This document shows positions 1-4,903 of a DNA stretch of 4,903 bases, one piece after another. This DNA comes from a virus. Taxonomy: Duplodnaviria > Heunggongvirae > Uroviricota > Caudoviricetes. A model generated the notes under the pieces. It saw only the letters and a program-made list of their open reading frames with translations, searched no databases and was not told the origin of the DNA. Every line of letters begins with the position of its first letter. The stretch's first letter is position 1. A program made the position numbers and the translations under genes. Where the stretch lies: positions 1 to 4,903 of IMG/VR virus record IMGVR_UViG_2663762857_000011. One strand, written 5' to 3'.

Positions 1-144
1 ACCGGGTTCTCCTTTCCATTTTTGGCAAACAAAAACTCCTGTTAAATTGCCGTGCTGGTTAACAGATGTATGCCCTACGATGTAGCTTCCTTTAGTTGCT
101 TTCTCTGCCTTTTCACGCAGTGCCTGATAGTTAATTTGGGTCAC
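1..144 (-). CDS. Hypothetical protein, partial: N-terminal 48 codons, continues past the left edge of the window
   Basis: GTG at 144..142 overlaps the upstream TGA stop (GTGA). GGAGG lies 7 nt upstream. The frame is open for 48 codons to position 1 (VTQINYQALREKAEKATKGSYIVGHTSVNQHGNLTGVFVCQKWKGEPG). Absent from the ORF track, presumably because it is truncated. No homology recognised. Confidence 0.4.
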   Translation of the reverse strand, partial: MTQINYQALREKAEKATKGSYIVGHTSVNQHGNLTGVFVCQKWKGEPG

Positions 145-365
145 TCTTCATCCTCCAAGTCGGCAACGGCGTCCATCACATCAGAACCGCGAATAACCTC
201 AAAAGCACGGCAGGCCATTTGAAATACCAGTTGCTCTTGCGGATGCGGTGATTCCCAATATTTGAATCCAGGGCGATGCGCGTACCCCATCATTGAATAA
301 AAATCACCAGCAAGCTTAATCGCGGCATCAACAAGCTCTCTGTTAGTCATTCTTTTTCCGCTCAC
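141..365 (-). CDS. Small hypothetical protein with acidic C-terminus (about 75 aa from GTG; ORF track gives 85 aa from an upstream start at 398)
   Basis: ORF track 141..398. The preferred start is GTG at 365..363, preceded by AAGGAGG at 6 nt spacing and overlapping the upstream stop as GTGA. C-terminus ...VMDAVADLEDEE. Leftward early operon context. No recognised domain. Confidence 0.55.
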   Translation of the reverse strand: MSGKRMTNRELVDAAIKLAGDFYSMMGYAHRPGFKYWESPHPQEQLVFQMACRAFEVIRGSDVMDAVADLEDEE

Positions 366-973
366 TGGTTGCCTCCTTTGCGAATCTGTTCCGCCCATTC
401 TTCTAGGGATTTCTCCGCATATTCACCGGACAGGCCATCAATCGGGTGTGGTTCATTAGCCAACTCTTCTTTCGCTGACAGAATCATGCGTGTAACGTCG
501 AAAACTTCACGTAAAGACTTATTGATAAATCCGTGATTGAAAGCAGCAGCAAGACGGCTTGCGGTATAGTTAATCCCCTCGTTGCGTGCTTCCGCACGAA
601 TTTCAGCCAGGAAATCATCGGTGGCTGGAGTTTCGCTGTGGTGCAGGGCATCGTTGATAATCATTGCAGCAACACCAGCCTGCCCTGCATCCGTGACCGA
701 CACATGCTCAAGAGTTACGGCCATTGCGTGTTTCAGCCCCGCATTCTCCGCCGCCAGCGCCGAAAACTTCTCGTGTGCCAACTTAACAGCTGCATCAGCC
801 TGCTTAATTGACTCAATCGCTTTCTGTTGGTCTTCGGACAGAGCCAAAATCTTGGCCTCCGCTTCAGCAAATTTACGCACCAGATATTCAGCATTTGTTT
901 CATTCACTTTCAGATCTCGTGGTACACATTTCCCGCGAAGAAACCCTTCCATTTCGAAAACATTCATGCGCAT
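362..973 (-). CDS. Hypothetical Ala-rich, probably alpha-helical protein (203 aa), early-left operon
   Basis: ORF track 362..973. ATG at 973 has GGAG 8 nt upstream and overlaps the upstream gene end by 10 nt. An alternative ATG at 967 forms an ATGA overlap with the upstream stop. The stop overlaps the next start (GTGA). No family recognised from sequence alone. Confidence 0.7.
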   Translation of the reverse strand: MRMNVFEMEGFLRGKCVPRDLKVNETNAEYLVRKFAEAEAKILALSEDQQKAIESIKQADAAVKLAHEKFSALAAENAGLKHAMAVTLEHVSVTDAGQAGVAAMIINDALHHSETPATDDFLAEIRAEARNEGINYTASRLAAAFNHGFINKSLREVFDVTRMILSAKEELANEPHPIDGLSGEYAEKSLEEWAEQIRKGGNQ

Positions 974-1500
974 GTGCGTAACTCCGATAACTCGTTAAAG
1001 CGCTCCATAAACATCCCGTAGGCATGGCTCGGAGCCAGTGGAATAACTTTGAACATTTCTGTTGCCGGGATACCTTCCAGTACTGGCCAGAAAGAGCCAT
1101 CATCAAGCCCGAGATCGCGACGTTCGGTTGCCAGCATAATGAGATCGGCATATTTCACTGGCGTGCTCATAACAGGAGGTAACCCGTATTTCTCACGGAT
1201 TACGGCGTCTATTTTTTCTTCCATCCGTTTATAGTCAGGAAGAAGGCGTTTCAGTGGCGCGGGGATGTCCTGGCAATACGCTTCTGTTGCATCATGCATT
1301 AATGCTTCAAAAGCAAATTCCTGCGGTACCAGCTGGCTGCAAAGCACCGCATGTTGGGCGACGCTGTAGAAATGAGAAAGATGACCGGCAAAGCGGCAGA
1401 TATTTGAAAGGGAAACCGCGATATCGTTAATCACGATGTCGTCTTTATTTATCTTGTCATAATAAAAATGCTTCCCGGAAAAAGTTTTAATAAATGACAT
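964..1500 (-). CDS. yfdR: HD-domain phosphohydrolase, YfdR-like 5'-deoxynucleotidase (178 aa)
   Basis: Start trimmed from the ORF-track 964..1569 to ATG at 1500..1498 (MSFIKTF...), which has GGAG about 7 nt upstream. HD signature: H...H (RFAGHLSHFYSVAQHA) followed by ALMHDATEAYCQDIPAPLKR, resembling the YfbR/YfdR pattern recalled from memory. Length equals the 178 aa recalled for prophage YfdR. The symbol is a family-level assignment, not a verified ortholog. Confidence 0.75.
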   Translation of the reverse strand: MSFIKTFSGKHFYYDKINKDDIVINDIAVSLSNICRFAGHLSHFYSVAQHAVLCSQLVPQEFAFEALMHDATEAYCQDIPAPLKRLLPDYKRMEEKIDAVIREKYGLPPVMSTPVKYADLIMLATERRDLGLDDGSFWPVLEGIPATEMFKVIPLAPSHAYGMFMERFNELSELRTCA

Positions 1501-1541
1501 TTTGTTCTCCACGTTATATGCGCTGCACCGCTCTGAATTTT

Positions 1542-1592
1542 GATTGCAGCAATCCAGCCCATTTGACATGGGATGATTGCTGCAATTTTTTT
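1542..1592 (+). terminator. Terminator-like extended hairpin on the plus strand (12 bp perfect stem, inner 5 bp stem, then T-run), opposing the minus-strand operon
   Basis: attgcagcaatc (1543..1554) pairs with gattgctgcaat (1575..1586). The loop holds a nested palindrome cccat-ttgac-atggg. Six to seven T follow (1586..1592) on the plus strand only. Lies between the RdgC-like stop (1591..1593) and the HD gene start (1500). Confidence 0.45.
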
Positions 1593-2508
1593 AAGTTGTT
1601 GGATTTTGGCTTTTATCTTCTTTGTAAGAAAGAAGGTCACACATCAAATTAACTACCTTGCTGAATTGGAAAAGGTCAGCGCCAGTCTGATGACGCCACT
1701 GGAATGCTTTATCATCTTCATCATTAAATGTCTGAGATTGAGTATTGATGCGCGAAAAATGGAAATTTTCGGTAAGAATGAAGGTCACACCGCAACCGGA
1801 TAACTCCATTTTATCAGCAGTGAAACTACTACTAAGGCTATCGGCCAGTTCGCTTTGAATTGACTCATGCTCAGCTGAGTAGCGAATAATTTCCTTTTGA
1901 TCTGCGTAGCGTGATAGCTGAATATAATTTCCGACAGTGAATCCTTCAAATGCATTGGCTGCACCATTGATGTAGTTATTCAGGCGTGTAGTCAGTCCAT
2001 TCTTGATATCACTGATGTTGATTGTTTCTGTTTTCACTGAACCGACAACCTTAATCAGCATTGCGCATACCATACCGGCTATTATTTTATTGGTTGTGTT
2101 GATTACCAATAATTTCTCATCAGTGCTGTACAATGCAAGAATCAGCGTAGACTTAACAAATGCCTGTTTGCATAGATCTACTCGTACGTTATCAATAATG
2201 GTCAGTCGTTCGGCACGCTTTAATTTATTCCCGGACATATTTTCGATTGTTTGGATTCGAGAATTAGCTTCTTTCATGACGACATGTCGGGGAATTATTT
2301 TCTGATCATGACGGATTACCATTGCGTACCCACCAGATATCGGAGTTACCAGTTCACCAGTGACAGGATTCTCTACAAAAGAGGACCGTGAAAGTTCTGT
2401 TTCCCCGATTTCAGAATAAGGGAGTTCGAGAAGATGACCTTCAATAGCCTGTATACTAGGTAATGTTGCTCGGTACACAATTGCGTTACGAAATTTTGGT
2501 AATTTCAT
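1591..2508 (-). CDS. rdgC: RdgC-like recombination-associated protein (306 aa)
   Basis: Start trimmed from the ORF-track 1591..2658 to ATG at 2508..2506 (MKLPKFRNAIVYR...), preceded by GAGGA at 7 nt. The N-terminal motif FRNAIVYR resembles RdgC FKNLMVYR. Further blocks (GYAMVIRHDQKIIPRHVVMK; KLKRAERLTIIDNVRVDLCKQAF) align with E. coli RdgC as recalled from memory. The upstream in-frame extension is a TTG-initiated read-through of the structured leader with no RBS. Confidence 0.75.
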   Translation of the reverse strand: MKLPKFRNAIVYRATLPSIQAIEGHLLELPYSEIGETELSRSSFVENPVTGELVTPISGGYAMVIRHDQKIIPRHVVMKEANSRIQTIENMSGNKLKRAERLTIIDNVRVDLCKQAFVKSTLILALYSTDEKLLVINTTNKIIAGMVCAMLIKVVGSVKTETINISDIKNGLTTRLNNYINGAANAFEGFTVGNYIQLSRYADQKEIIRYSAEHESIQSELADSLSSSFTADKMELSGCGVTFILTENFHFSRINTQSQTFNDEDDKAFQWRHQTGADLFQFSKVVNLMCDLLSYKEDKSQNPTT

Positions 2509-3107
2509 TCTATTTTCCTCTGCACAAGATATTAGTTTCTCCACAAAACAGAGAAGAACACCTGCGGTGGCAGCCGCCCGGGTGGATTGGGTTATGAGCC
2601 CGTCGTCCGGTGATGCTCTTCTCTGTTTTGTAAAAAGAGCGGTACCAGCCGGAAGCAAGTGTACAAACTGGTACCGCCAAAGCAGTGGCTGCTGTGGTGA
2701 CCGATGCTGATCTCCGGCTTGCGGTTATTTCAGACTCTCACGGGCGTTTAATTGCCCCGCCGAACAGCTCTTTTCCGCAATAGCTGCAATGTCTTTCGTG
2801 CATCAGCCTGCGCATTCACCACAACGCTGAGAGCACTTAGCCAGTTACGGCACCACACTTTGTCGCGGTTCCATAAATGCCCTCATCGTTGCACCCTGGT
2901 CTCTTCCCAGGTGTCAAACCGAACCGCCACGCTGGTTAGGCGTCTTATCAGCATCCTCATTGACTTGCACATTCCGGCTACCTGGTTTGTTTGCCCGAGC
3001 AAGGAGTGGATTGTCCCCTTTAACGTCCCCAGACCGCTAACGACGCATGTGCCATACGCCGTGTTACAACCAAATTTTGTTTAATCTTGCCTGTGACATG
3101 TTTCTTT
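2509..3107 (-). other. Long (~590 nt) untranslated, GC-enriched, inverted-repeat-rich leader between the pL-like promoter and the first leftward gene; candidate structured RNA or regulatory element
   Basis: No minus-strand ORF of 60 aa or more. All three minus frames are interrupted by stops (one frame has stops at 3066, 3039, 2916, 2847, 2805 and 2727). Local GC is about 55-57% against roughly 40-45% in flanking genes (estimated by eye). Multiple hairpins, including the 18 bp inverted repeat at 2543..2631 and GGTACCAG/CTGGTACC at 2641..2675. Confidence 0.4.
2543..2631 (-). repeat. 18 bp inverted repeat flanking a 53 nt GC-rich loop (89 nt hairpin) just upstream of the RdgC-like RBS
   Basis: Plus acaaaacagagaagaaca (2543..2560) against tgctcttctctgttttgt (2614..2631). 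The single mismatch is A/C on the plus strand but a G.U wobble on the minus-strand RNA, so the stem is fully paired only in the leftward transcript. Confidence 0.6.
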
Positions 3108-3142
3108 TAGATACATTATGTATCTCAAGGGTACATTGTCAA
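3108..3142 (-). promoter_or_regulatory. pL-like early leftward promoter (-35 TTGACA, 16 nt spacer, -10 CATAAT)
   Basis: On the minus strand, TTGACA at 3142..3137 and CATAAT at 3120..3115. Sits immediately downstream of the cI terminator and upstream of the leader. The -10 is overlapped by the 17 bp palindrome. Confidence 0.5.
3109..3125. promoter_or_regulatory. Operator-like 17 bp perfect palindrome (agatacat-t-atgtatct) overlapping the -10 of the pL-like promoter (oL candidate)
   Basis: Perfect 8 bp arms around a single central base. The position overlapping a promoter -10 is typical of a repressor operator. Confidence 0.45.
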
Positions 3143-3146
3143 GTAT

Positions 3147-3169
3147 AAAAAAACCTGCCGAAGCAGGTT
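3147..3169 (-). terminator. Rho-independent terminator downstream of the repressor gene
   Basis: Minus-strand RNA: AACCUGC-UUCG-GCAGGUU followed by five or more U. That is a 7 bp stem with a UUCG tetraloop, starting 12 nt after the cI stop at 3181..3183. Confidence 0.7.
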
Positions 3170-3180
3170 ATAAATATTGA

Positions 3181-3855
3181 TTAGGCCTTTATTTTGTATC
3201 TTCTTGGTTTTCCTGAGAAAATTACTGTGCCAATTATAGAGCAATTACCGTTGATCTTAATGTAAGGTTCAGGCCAGTTTGGGTTTAATGCTTTGAGGTA
3301 ACGCTGTGTTCCATCTTCTATCAACCGCTTAAAGGTGGTTTCGCCTGTATCGTGCATCAATGCAATAACGTCGTCACCGTGGCAGGCAGGGACTTCAGGA
3401 TCTACAAAAATCATGTCTCCCGGGCGGTACTCATCAATCATTGAATCACCAATCACCCGCAAGATATAAGTCATTTCGCCACAGGGTACAGGGCAGGGAT
3501 AAGTTTCTGCTGTGCTCAAATCAACCTCAGAATAGCCAACTTCTTTCCATGCTCCGGCCTGTACCCATGATATGACAGGGACTAACGTTATTTGTTTGTT
3601 AGTAATTGAAACATCAGGTTTTTTTGTGATGTTTGTTGTCTGGTGTTCTTGATCAAGCCATCCGACAGGCAGGTCGAAACATTTTTCGATGTGCCGTGCC
3701 ATGCTGTCACCGATATTTTTAGTAGCACCATCTCCCATAAACCTGCTGGTCTGGGTTGGCTCGCGATCAATCATGGTGGCAAAGGAAGAATTCCCGCCAA
3801 CACCATCTCTCAGTTTTCTGGCGTTAGACCGCCGGATGTCATGGACTGTTTTCAT
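3181..3855 (-). CDS. Prophage repressor, CI/LexA family (N-terminal HTH plus C-terminal S24 autopeptidase), 224 aa
   Basis: ORF track 3181..3855. The C-terminal domain has the S24 signature: GDSM with Ser138, FKRL with Lys176 (38 residues apart), and a candidate Ala100-Gly101 autocleavage site (VQAGAW). The N-terminal 70 aa is HTH-like. Divergent from the Cro-like gene and followed by a terminator. Confidence 0.9.
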   Translation of the reverse strand: MKTVHDIRRSNARKLRDGVGGNSSFATMIDREPTQTSRFMGDGATKNIGDSMARHIEKCFDLPVGWLDQEHQTTNITKKPDVSITNKQITLVPVISWVQAGAWKEVGYSEVDLSTAETYPCPVPCGEMTYILRVIGDSMIDEYRPGDMIFVDPEVPACHGDDVIALMHDTGETTFKRLIEDGTQRYLKALNPNWPEPYIKINGNCSIIGTVIFSGKPRRYKIKA

Positions 3856-3871
3856 AACGAAATTAAAACCT

Positions 3872-3890
3872 TTGTACCGATAGGGTACAA
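3872..3890. promoter_or_regulatory. Operator-like 19 bp perfect palindrome TTGTACC-gatag-GGTACAA in the cI/cro intergenic region (oR candidate)
   Basis: Perfect 7 bp arms with a 5 bp spacer. Located 17 bp from the cI start codon and about 55 bp upstream of the cro start. GTAC-containing half-site-like motifs recur at 3934..3948 and 3131..3136. Confidence 0.45.
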
Positions 3891-3945
3891 GTATCTTTAA
3901 GGTTCATCTCAATCATGTAGTATGTATATTGGAGGTACATATTGT

Positions 3946-4146
3946 ATGAAAGCGTATTGGGACTCTTTAACCAAAGAACAGCAGGGCGAGTTGGCCGGAA
4001 AAGTTGGCTCAACACCAGGCTACTTACGGCTGGTTTTCAATGGTTATAAAAAAGCCAGTTTTGTGCTGGCTAAAAAACTTGAGCAATGCACGTCAGGTGC
4101 AATTACGAAATCTGACTTAAGACCGGATATCTATCCGAAAGATTAA
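3946..4146 (+). CDS. Cro-like small HTH regulator (YdaS/Cro family), 66 aa
   Basis: Start trimmed from the ORF-track 3922..4146 to ATG at 3946, which has GGAGG at 3931..3935. The upstream ATG at 3922 has no RBS and would translate the SD itself. The C-terminal motif ...SGAITKSDLRPDIY resembles the YdaS-type Cro pattern (...G.V....LRPD). Divergent from the repressor. Confidence 0.75.
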   Translation: MKAYWDSLTKEQQGELAGKVGSTPGYLRLVFNGYKKASFVLAKKLEQCTSGAITKSDLRPDIYPKD

Positions 4147-4177
4147 CAGAACACCTTCAATTTTTAACCACAGAACG

Positions 4178-4747
4178 ATGAGGCTAACCGTGGGTAAGCA
4201 TCACTGGAAAGTAGAAAAACAGCCTGAGTGGTACGTGAAAGCTGTCAGAAAAACTATCGCGGCGTTGCCGGGGGGTTACGCTGAAGCTGCTGAGTGGCTG
4301 GATGTAACAGAGAACGCTTTATTCAATCGCCTTCGTGCCGATGGCGATCAGATTTTCCCGCTGGGATGGGCAATGATTTTACAACGTGCTGGTGGAACTC
4401 ACTTCATTGCTGACGCTGTGGCGCAGTCTGCAAATGGCGTCTTTGTGTCTCTTCCTGACGTCGAGGATGTGGACAACGCCGATATTAACCAGCGTCTGCT
4501 GGAAGTCATCGAACAGATCGGGAGTTACTCAAAGCAGATTCGTTCGGCAATCGAAGATGGGGTAGTGGAACCGCATGAGAAAACAGCAATTAACGACGAA
4601 CTGTATCTTTCAATTTCGAAGCTCCAGGAGCATGCAGCACTGGTCTACAAAATCTTCTGCGCTCCAGAAAAGAGTAACGCCCGCGAGTGTGCAGCTCCGG
4701 GCGTCGTGGCGTCGATTGCTTCTGGTTGTGGAGAAACTAACGCATGA
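4178..4747 (+). CDS. CII-like / YdaT-family early regulatory protein (189 aa; possible GTG start at 4190 giving 185 aa)
   Basis: ORF track 4178..4747. Sits directly after cro, the position that CII or YdaT occupies in lambdoid prophages. GAGG lies 6 nt before the in-frame GTG at 4190, whereas no clear SD precedes ATG 4178. The family assignment is by position and general resemblance only. Confidence 0.6.
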   Translation: MRLTVGKHHWKVEKQPEWYVKAVRKTIAALPGGYAEAAEWLDVTENALFNRLRADGDQIFPLGWAMILQRAGGTHFIADAVAQSANGVFVSLPDVEDVDNADINQRLLEVIEQIGSYSKQIRSAIEDGVVEPHEKTAINDELYLSISKLQEHAALVYKIFCAPEKSNARECAAPGVVASIASGCGETNA

Positions 4748-4903
4748 ATAGTTTAACGGCAAATAACCGTTTGCATATTGATTCTGCAATTCCGGGACGT
4801 TACACTGCTCAGGCACCTTATAAAGCGGGGGCCGGGCGTGGAAACCCGAAATTCAATATAGAGCACAACCGCGCTCATGCGGTTTTTTCGTGTCATGAGC
4901 ATC
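4744..4903 (+). CDS. Hypothetical protein, partial: N-terminal 53 codons, continues past the right edge; occupies the position of a replication or early gene
   Basis: ATG at 4744 overlaps the upstream TGA (ATGA). GGAG lies about 10 nt upstream. The frame is open to the window end (MNSLTANNRLHIDSAIPGRYTAQAPYKAGAGRGNPKFNIEHNRAHAVFSCHEH). No family recognised. Confidence 0.4.
   Translation, partial: MNSLTANNRLHIDSAIPGRYTAQAPYKAGAGRGNPKFNIEHNRAHAVFSCHEH

Follow-up and report, generated by a model that had tools for sequence, protein, structure and literature searches.

What do the two genes at positions 3946–4747 of this stretch of tailed-phage DNA encode, and is the short interval between them empty? 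The stretch, hereafter the window, comprises 4,903 nt (positions 1 to 4,903 of IMG/VR record IMGVR_UViG_2663762857_000011, Caudoviricetes). A first-pass annotation, made from the sequence letters alone, described a Cro-like gene followed directly by a CII/YdaT-like gene with no terminator or nut-like element in between and took this arrangement to be consistent with an N-independent phage. We find that the pair is the already-annotated ymfT–ymfL pair (Cro plus CII-like) of e14/SfV-type Escherichia coli prophages and that the spacer is not featureless, contrary to what the earlier description implied. It probably holds a YmfL-binding site and a promoter that switches on the repressor gene, as judged from conserved sequence. 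The gene pair is thus ordinary and known, while the predicted YmfL site and two predicted leftward promoters would be modestly new; the literature searched contained no description of a YmfL-binding site or of leftward promoters with the geometry of the phage 186 promoter pE.

The identity of the locus is readily established. Using megablast, the segment 3100–4903 was matched in 2,765 of 5,426 complete E. coli genomes at 94–98% DNA identity, and the matched features are annotated ymfK, ymfT, ymfL, and then a Rha-family regulator. The gene order in the e14 prophage of K-12 is identical (ymfK, ymfT, ymfL, and then ymfM, annotated as ‘cell division inhibitor’). The same immunity region is found at 95–96% identity in phages cdtI, Ayreon, 2H10, and SfV, as well as in many Stx2c phages. 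Names differ among relatives: E. coli annotations call the divergent gene ymfK, that of SfV calls it cI, and that of Ayreon calls it repressor, while the next two genes of SfV are annotated as cro and orf36. A leftward repressor gene, a rightward cro, and a rightward ymfL, in that order and in near-identical DNA, make this the rightward early pair within an e14/SfV-type lambdoid immunity region. The resemblance to e14-type prophages proposed in the first-pass annotation is therefore fully borne out, as this is the e14/SfV immunity region itself. The closest known systems, e14 (ymfK/cohE, ymfT/croE, ymfL, ymfM) and SfV (cI–cro–orf36–orf37), share with the window not only these genes, their order, and the DNA identity given above, but also the operators, the terminator after the repressor gene, and the ATGA overlap after ymfL.

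The length of the interval depends on where ymfL starts. It measures 31 nt to ATG 4178, the start assumed at first, and 43 nt to GTG 4190. The GTG is the conserved start across 62 related loci from many Enterobacterales genera, including Escherichia, Citrobacter, Klebsiella, Enterobacter, Pantoea, Erwinia, and Yersinia, and in several of these loci, a stop codon shuts the ymfL frame just 5′ of the GTG. The RefSeq homologue of ymfL is 558 nt long, i.e., it starts at the equivalent of 4190, and a GAGG Shine–Dalgarno sequence (4180–4183) lies 6 nt 5′ of this codon. Because of the RefSeq start, the conservation of the GTG, the upstream stops, and the GAGG, the ymfL product is most likely 185 rather than 189 amino acids long and the spacer 43 nt; the ~31 nt reported earlier holds for the ATG alone. 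In nearly all 62 loci, a Cro-like open reading frame (ORF) of 65–98 amino acids lies upstream of the YmfL-family start. The distance from its end to that start is nearly always between −14 and +63 nt, with a mode of 28 nt and a gap of ~200 nt in a handful of loci. This succession of a Cro-like gene and a YmfL-family gene is not due to chance.

No hairpin, terminator, or nut element was found between the two genes, as had been reported. The predicted fold of positions 4100–4215 (−16 kcal/mol) is no better than that of shuffled sequences (z = 0.18), and a terminator scan of the plus strand found none between 3892 and 4699. The boxA-like sequence ACTCTTTAAC at 3962–3971, inside ymfT, is within chance (two matches versus 0.36 expected). 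With no terminator between ymfT and ymfL, transcription can pass from one to the other without antitermination, and this part of the first-pass annotation stands. So does its description of the gene downstream of ymfL as coupled by an ATGA overlap, formed by an ATG at 4744 and a TGA at 4745–4747.

Profile searches and a predicted fold place YmfL in the CII family of phage 186. The only Pfam family that YmfL matches above cutoff is PF06892 (Phage_CP76; 52.1 bits, cutoff 26), to which 186 CII aligns with 163.6 bits. YmfL also matches NCBIfam NF041471, ‘YmfL family putative regulatory protein’ (168.9 bits, cutoff 90), and PHROG 101, ‘CII-like transcriptional activator’. An AlphaFold2 model computed from a 32-sequence alignment has a mean predicted local distance difference test (pLDDT) score of 71 and consists of a five-helix helix-turn-helix (HTH) domain (residues 13–80), two long helices (residues 96–156), and a disordered tail (residues 160–185). 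The top Foldseek matches of this model in the PDB are the 186 CII structures 6vli/6vpe (probability 1.0, E = 1.6e-4), with 146 aligned columns and TM-scores of 0.46–0.58. By comparison, YmfL has no match to the phage λ CII family PF05269 at E ≤ 0.1, whereas λ CII itself scores 163.8 bits. Thus, of the initial ‘CII/YdaT-like’ label, CII-like holds in the 186 sense. YdaT-like is valid as a functional analogy only: YdaT belongs to PF06254, which YmfL does not match, BLASTP between the two gave E = 13, and hhalign aligned 13 columns with a probability of 0.5%.

The C-terminal tail of YmfL (residues 160–185, encoded at 4667–4744; ...ARECAAPG...GETNA) is near-invariant across genera in spite of its predicted disorder. 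By analogy with λ and 186 CII, it may serve as a protease-recognition tail.

A palindrome lies at the start of ymfL. An alignment of the 75 nt that precede the start in all loci revealed a near-invariant AACCACAG ~20 nt 5′ of the GTG, whichever Cro gene precedes it. The palindrome of the window, TTAACCACAG-N14-CCGTGGGTAA, covers −26 to +8 of ymfL and overlaps both the Shine–Dalgarno sequence and the GTG start. Its half-site cores, CCACAG (4168–4173) and CCGTGG (4188–4193), are 20 bp apart from center to center, i.e., two helical turns, and the motif has one match in the window versus 0.01 expected. Across the family, the consensus is CCACAG-N14-C(C/T)GTGG, with arms that extend to TTAMCCACAG and reach up to 10 bp, and the palindrome sits at −22 from the start in ~50 of the 62 loci. 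The half-sites are near-invariant, and so is the DNA-recognition helix of YmfL, NALFNRLR. A second, perfect copy, CCACAG-N14-CTGTGG, is found ~118 nt past the ymfL stop, inside the ymfM-like genes of K-12 e14, SfV, and 10 other loci, where its flanks are poorly conserved. The SfV genome (37 kb) contains no copies beyond these two, compared with 0.25 expected. The motif tracks ymfL, not the variable cro and cI genes. The upstream partners of ymfL-family genes have more than 10 different Cro C-termini over the 62 loci. For instance, in strain S19-141, ymfL is preceded by the genes for an XRE/S24 repressor and for an HTH_3 Cro of 86 aa, the latter with a stop codon that overlaps the ymfL start. 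Two direct repeats, GTTCTGT (4146/4170) and AGAAAAAC (4214/4248), were also considered as CII sites and dropped, as they are unconserved across the loci.

Promoter-like hexamers accompany the palindrome at a fixed distance. On the minus strand, numbered from the initial base of the proximal CTGTGG, positions 6–11 read TTnnnn and positions 29–34 (28–33 in the window) read TAnnnT. The pattern TTnnnn-N16/17-TAnnnT is present in 47 of the 48 distinct contexts of the palindrome at the ymfL start (site 1), compared with a background rate of 1.7%. These 48 contexts include 24 different hexamers, different Cro reading frames, and more than 10 Cro C-termini. TAnnnT, which lies 28/29 nt from the proximal half-site at site 1, is also found at the same distance in all 12 contexts of the second site, within ymfM-like genes. 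The position of the −10 was set by an offset scan over 51 loci together with the annotated end of 186 pE. In the window, a −35-like TTAAAA (4167–4162) and a −10-like TAATCT (4145–4140) are separated by 16 nt, with a predicted start near 4133. We infer that the conserved hexamers form a sigma-70 promoter whose −35 is weak and whose spacer measures 16/17 nt, with the palindrome centered near −48.

On balance, and with moderate confidence, we favor a model in which YmfL is a 186-type CII that binds the spacer palindrome and activates this leftward promoter toward ymfK. In this model, ymfT and ymfL would form one transcription unit expressed from PR, with YmfT acting as a Cro-type repressor and YmfL, a member of the phage 186 CII family, as an activator in the establishment of lysogeny. 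An oligomer of YmfL would bind CCACAG-N14-CCGTGG and, once bound, would activate the weak leftward sigma-70 promoter TTAAAA-N16-TAATCT, generating a transcript that runs antisense through ymfT toward the repressor gene. This mode of action would parallel that of 186 CII at pE and λ CII at pRE. The disordered yet highly conserved C-terminal tail would make YmfL a short-lived protein like other CII proteins, presumably through proteolysis.

The establishment promoter is proposed because the conserved site and hexamers match the geometry of 186 pE. Activation of pE by 186 CII, a protein that FtsH and RseP degrade, leads to the production of CI and Int (PMC8538670). The CII site, ATGTTTG-N13-CAAACAT, lies in the first 28 nt of cII and has a center-to-center spacing of 20 bp, equal to that in the window. 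The promoter pE points leftward, and its annotated end is at 23400. The distance between the proximal half-site center and the −10 is ~25 nt in 186, with TAAAGT read as the −10, and 25.5–26.5 nt in the YmfL family. The two phages share the PF06892 family and the predicted fold of the regulator, as well as a parallel gene order, apl–cII–fil in 186 (locus L008, 2142–3180) and ymfT–ymfL–ymfM in e14 (L002, 7025–8161). The gap between the end of apl and cII is 30 nt, compared with 43 nt between ymfT and ymfL. In both cases, the next gene encodes a cell-division inhibitor, Fil in 186 and YmfM in e14, with no sequence similarity between the two. The differences are also clear. The half-site sequences are not the same (ATGTTTG versus CCACAG), and the 186 site is wholly within cII, while that of the window spans the spacer and the first ymfL codons. 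Apl is a Cox-like excisionase/repressor, whereas YmfT is an HTH Cro, and the backbone of 186 is P2-like, while that of the window phage is lambdoid.

Phage λ follows the same logic, with a repressor gene divergent from cro, a CII-type second gene in the PR operon, and an establishment promoter that lies where cro and cII meet and reads antisense to cro. Its components are different: λ CII belongs to a family unrelated to that of YmfL and binds direct TTGC repeats instead of a two-turn palindrome, and the 118-nt cro–cII gap carries rutA, nutR, and rutB and needs N, while the window gap has none of these. The same three-gene layout is also seen in the RacR–YdaS–YdaT region of Rac and CP-933P, where the ydaS–ydaT gap is 22 nt. 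YdaT is a functional equivalent of CII, made up of an HTH domain, a tetramerizing helical domain, and a flexible tail (PMC9986795). It recognizes TTGATT-N6-AATCAA (PMC9986795), unlike the palindrome of the window, and is not detectably homologous to YmfL.

Several observations weigh against the activator model. Pairwise BLASTP and a shallow hhalign comparison of YmfL with 186 CII gave no significance, so the proposed homology depends on the Pfam hidden Markov model and a medium-confidence structural model (pLDDT 71). The −10 of the window (TAATCT) is poor, and the spacer is 16 nt instead of 17 nt. Inside ymfT, positions 4053–4071 contain a terminator-like hairpin on the minus strand (AGCCAGCACAAAACTGGCT followed by TTTTT) that could halt the leftward transcript ~65–80 nt past its start; this hairpin occurs only with e14-type ymfT, and most other loci of the YmfL family are without it. 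Shared coding of the Cro C-terminus could account for part of the TAnnnT conservation, yet the 24 hexamers and the differing frames speak otherwise. Published work on the SfV group states that SfII, SfIV, and SfV, which share this immunity, are without CII, CIII, and N (PMC3851460), and our prediction contrasts with the first of these statements.

Finally, site 1 overlaps the ribosome-binding site of ymfL, which makes autorepression the foremost alternative. The palindrome would then be an autoregulatory operator, and YmfL, bound over its own Shine–Dalgarno sequence and start, would block polymerase coming from PR or cut its own synthesis without activating a leftward promoter. The location of the site fits this proposal, regulators often bind palindromes within their own genes, and the amount of CII is known to be kept under strict limits (PMC8538670). 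We nonetheless regard it as unlikely, since it leaves unexplained both the hexamers kept at a fixed distance on the minus strand at site 1 and the same layout at the second site, away from any start codon. In addition, the homologous site of 186 is an activator site, and the two roles could coexist.

Even less probable, in our view, is that the conserved sequence acts as RNA and binds no protein as DNA, with CCAC pairing to the GUGG of the start in a hairpin that limits ymfL translation. CCAC and GTGG are indeed complementary and flank the Shine–Dalgarno sequence, the upstream CCAC is absent from the three loci in which the start is ATG and GTGG is missing, and a GTG start suggests restrained translation. 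However, the stem would have just 4–5 bp around an 18-nt loop in a region whose fold is indistinguishable from shuffles (see above), the palindrome recurs within ymfM-like genes where there is no start codon, and its arms reach 10 bp when read as a DNA palindrome. The last possibility, implied by the toxicity test put forward in the first-pass annotation, is that ymfT and ymfL are a YdaS/YdaT-like toxin–antitoxin or toxin–repressor pair in which a 185-aa toxin is neutralized by the Cro-like protein or the repressor; it is very improbable, because, despite the Pfam names YdaS_toxin and YdaT_toxin, a weak YdaS_toxin match of YmfT, and a report that the e14 repressor is essential (PMC5917428), YmfL has no similarity to YdaT, cells overexpressing ymfL keep a normal length without filamentation, whereas those overexpressing ymfM, the toxic gene of the operon, filament (bioRxiv 10.1101/2020.11.19.390815), ymfL occurs with many unrelated Cro genes and cI/cro cassettes that are not co-inherited with it, and YdaS and YdaT are themselves now seen not as toxins but as analogues of Cro and CII (PMC5917428; PMC9986795).

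The activator model gives YmfL, the product of a K-12 gene found in about half of E. coli genomes, a specific and testable prediction, namely a CCACAG-N14-CTGTGG site, target promoters at the ymfL start and inside ymfM, and a 186-type CII role in establishing repression. If true, it would mean that lambdoid phages without N have received an establishment module of the P2/186 type, and it would help to explain the lysogeny choice of Stx2c-, Cdt-I-, and O-antigen-converting phages of the same immunity type.

The partner of YmfL, YmfT, is a distant YdaS-like Cro, as far as sequence comparison can tell, in agreement with its initial description as Cro-like and related to YdaS. It matches PHROG 35, ‘transcriptional repressor’ (E = 3e-15), and K-12 YdaS by BLASTP (26% identity over 50 residues, E = 1e-5), while its Pfam YdaS_toxin (PF15943) score of 25.1 bits is under the cutoff of 30. 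Among structures in the PDB, it matches Cro of CP-933P (8co2/8c7k) with E = 0.01.

Whether the phage as a whole is N-independent is a separate question. The window has no N-like ORF, nut site, or put-like sequence that we could find, and the minus strand of 2509–3110, left of the repressor gene, where an N-like gene was sought, has no credible ORF. Two boxA-like sequences were considered as parts of nut sites and rejected, the one in ymfT noted above and CGCTCTTT in the left leader, as neither is followed by a boxB-like hairpin. Similarly, a blastn comparison of the window with the HK022 early region, made with the put RNA in mind, returned nothing relevant as far as sequence similarity goes. 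The SfV genome has a Q-like gene and no annotated N. Because there are terminators on both arms, an isrK-type terminator on the right and a leader terminator on the left, some read-through mechanism is still needed; N-independence is plausible but, given these terminators, not settled.

The right-hand terminator belongs to a module brought close to ymfL by a deletion. In comparison with SfV, Ayreon, AHB12, and S19-141, the window is missing 291 bp (97 codons, in frame) at the junction 4773/4774, right after the 10th codon of the ATGA-coupled ORF; the counterparts of this segment are at 5675–5965 in locus L001 and 8168–8458 in L004. The lost segment contains the bulk of the ymfM-like gene as well as the second CCACAG-N14-CTGTGG site, both of which e14 and SfV retain. 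Among the complete E. coli genomes listed, all split the match in two at this segment. The junction is natural, because IMG/VR contig IMGVR_UViG_2693429642_000015 has the same one, with an ORF of 286 aa that carries a Rha domain; a search for the junction found this one contig in IMG/VR and none in GTDB species representatives.

Because of the lost 291 bp, an isrK/C4/Rha antirepressor module directly follows ymfL. A match to isrK (Rfam RF01394, 57.7 bits versus a gathering score of 50) is preceded by a promoter-like sequence, read by eye as TTGATT (4778–4783)-N17-TACACT (4801–4806). The isrK-type RNA, of an Hfq-binding kind, begins 66 nt past ymfL, within the ATGA-coupled ORF, and its intrinsic terminator lies 120 nt beyond ymfL, inside the same ORF. 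A weak c4-a1b1 match at 4800–4852 overlaps isrK. In SfV, Ayreon, and AHB12, a C4 antisense RNA (75–82 bits) comes ~24–25 nt after isrK, and in AHB12 and S19-141, a Rha antirepressor domain follows. The contig with the same junction has both a C4 (82.4 bits) and the Rha-domain ORF after isrK; C4 falls outside the window. The region is thus an isrK/C4 antisense-RNA antirepressor module, with isrK in the window and C4 and Rha in its relatives. It is of the kind known as isrK–orf45–anrP in Gifsy-1 and c4–icd–ant in P1 (PMC4825925), and the P4 CI RNA system is also comparable. In Gifsy-1, isrK has its own locus next to antQ, while that of the window comes after a CII-like gene in the PR operon, inside a long ORF.

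This ORF has an unusual relationship with the RNA genes it crosses. Its frame stays open for ~105 codons across them in the window and the contig with the same junction, SfV, Ayreon, AHB12, and S19-141, and Pfam Phage_ASH (PF10554) matches the translated isrK–C4 stretch (L005, 5443–5734; L004, 8486–8770; homologous to 4774 onward). Either the family derives from RNA genes in translation, or the region encodes both RNA and protein. The peptides that SfV and S19-141 encode in the 3′ half of isrK cannot be aligned with each other. A speculative possibility, to which we give little credence, is that the ATGA-coupled ORF exists for the purpose of read-through, with ribosomes from ymfL translating across the isrK promoter, terminator, and C4. 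Translated transcripts from PR would then not be stopped by the isrK terminator and would extend to the Rha antirepressor with no need for an N-like factor, while transcripts that begin at the isrK promoter and are not translated would end at the terminator, giving the small RNA (sRNA).

Table 1. Annotated and predicted features of the 4,903-nt window.
Feature	Position	Strand	Basis or remark
HD/YfbR-like 5′-deoxynucleotidase	964–1569	−	Leftward early gene; unlike K-12 e14
RdgC-family protein	1591–2508	−	Leftward early gene; unlike K-12 e14
Structured leader element	2532–2680	−	Conserved terminator, then long hairpin; also in L002 (K-12 e14), 5089–5253, and 31 other loci
PL-like promoter, TTGACA-16-CATAAT	3142–3115	−	Strong; overlaps an operator copy
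Fourth operator-like copy	3117–3136		Repeat search; overlaps the PL-like promoter, beyond the ymfK terminator
ymfK 3′ terminator	3152–3169		Terminator scan; end of the repressor gene
ymfK, cI-type repressor, LexA-like, 224 aa	3181–3855	−	Pfam Peptidase_S24, 92.8 bits; annotation of relatives
Right operator region, three ~20-bp units	3871–3890, 3888–3907, 3921–3940		Repeat and inverted-repeat search; between ymfK and ymfT
ymfT, Cro-like HTH protein, 66 aa	3946–4146	+	ATG 3946, stop TAA 4144–4146
Predicted leftward activator-dependent promoter (pE/pRE analogue)	4140–4167	−	Conserved hexamers
Palindrome, candidate YmfL (CII) binding site	4164–4197		Conservation and 186-like geometry
ymfL, 186-type CII-like regulator, 185 aa	4190–4747	+	GTG 4190; alternative ATG 4178 gives 189 aa
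ATGA-coupled ORF	4744–4903	+	Runs off the window; 10 ymfM-like codons joined in frame to an Ash/Rha antirepressor frame
isrK-type sRNA unit	4778–4889	+	Promoter-like sequence, RNA 4813–4889, terminator hairpin 4867–4884 plus T run

The remaining features complete the picture of the immunity region (Table 1). A ~20-bp operator-like unit, TGTAyC-N5-GGTACA, is present in four copies in the window, and the stretch homologous to the three right-hand units is annotated in SfV as a putative operator region. With copies on both sides of ymfK, the sequence suggests an OR/OL layout resembling that of λ.

Between the RdgC-like gene and the repressor gene, ~650 nt (2509–3180) have no credible ORF and are conserved at 95–99% in ~2,700 E. 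coli genomes; 486 of the places where they occur are on plasmids. The structured leader element in this region has a fold z-score of −6.5 and no match in Rfam. The stem sequence of its terminator varies among genera, with the hairpin and T run always kept, and the ~25-bp hairpin directly after it displays compensatory changes, e.g., at one pair, 17 sequences have GC and 16 have CG. In K-12, the element lies under a coding sequence annotated as ymfH, which may not be a protein gene. The leftward early genes beyond it, encoding the RdgC-family protein and the HD hydrolase, differ from those of K-12 e14, and the true start of the RdgC-family gene is probably the ATG near 2508, not the TTG at 2658.

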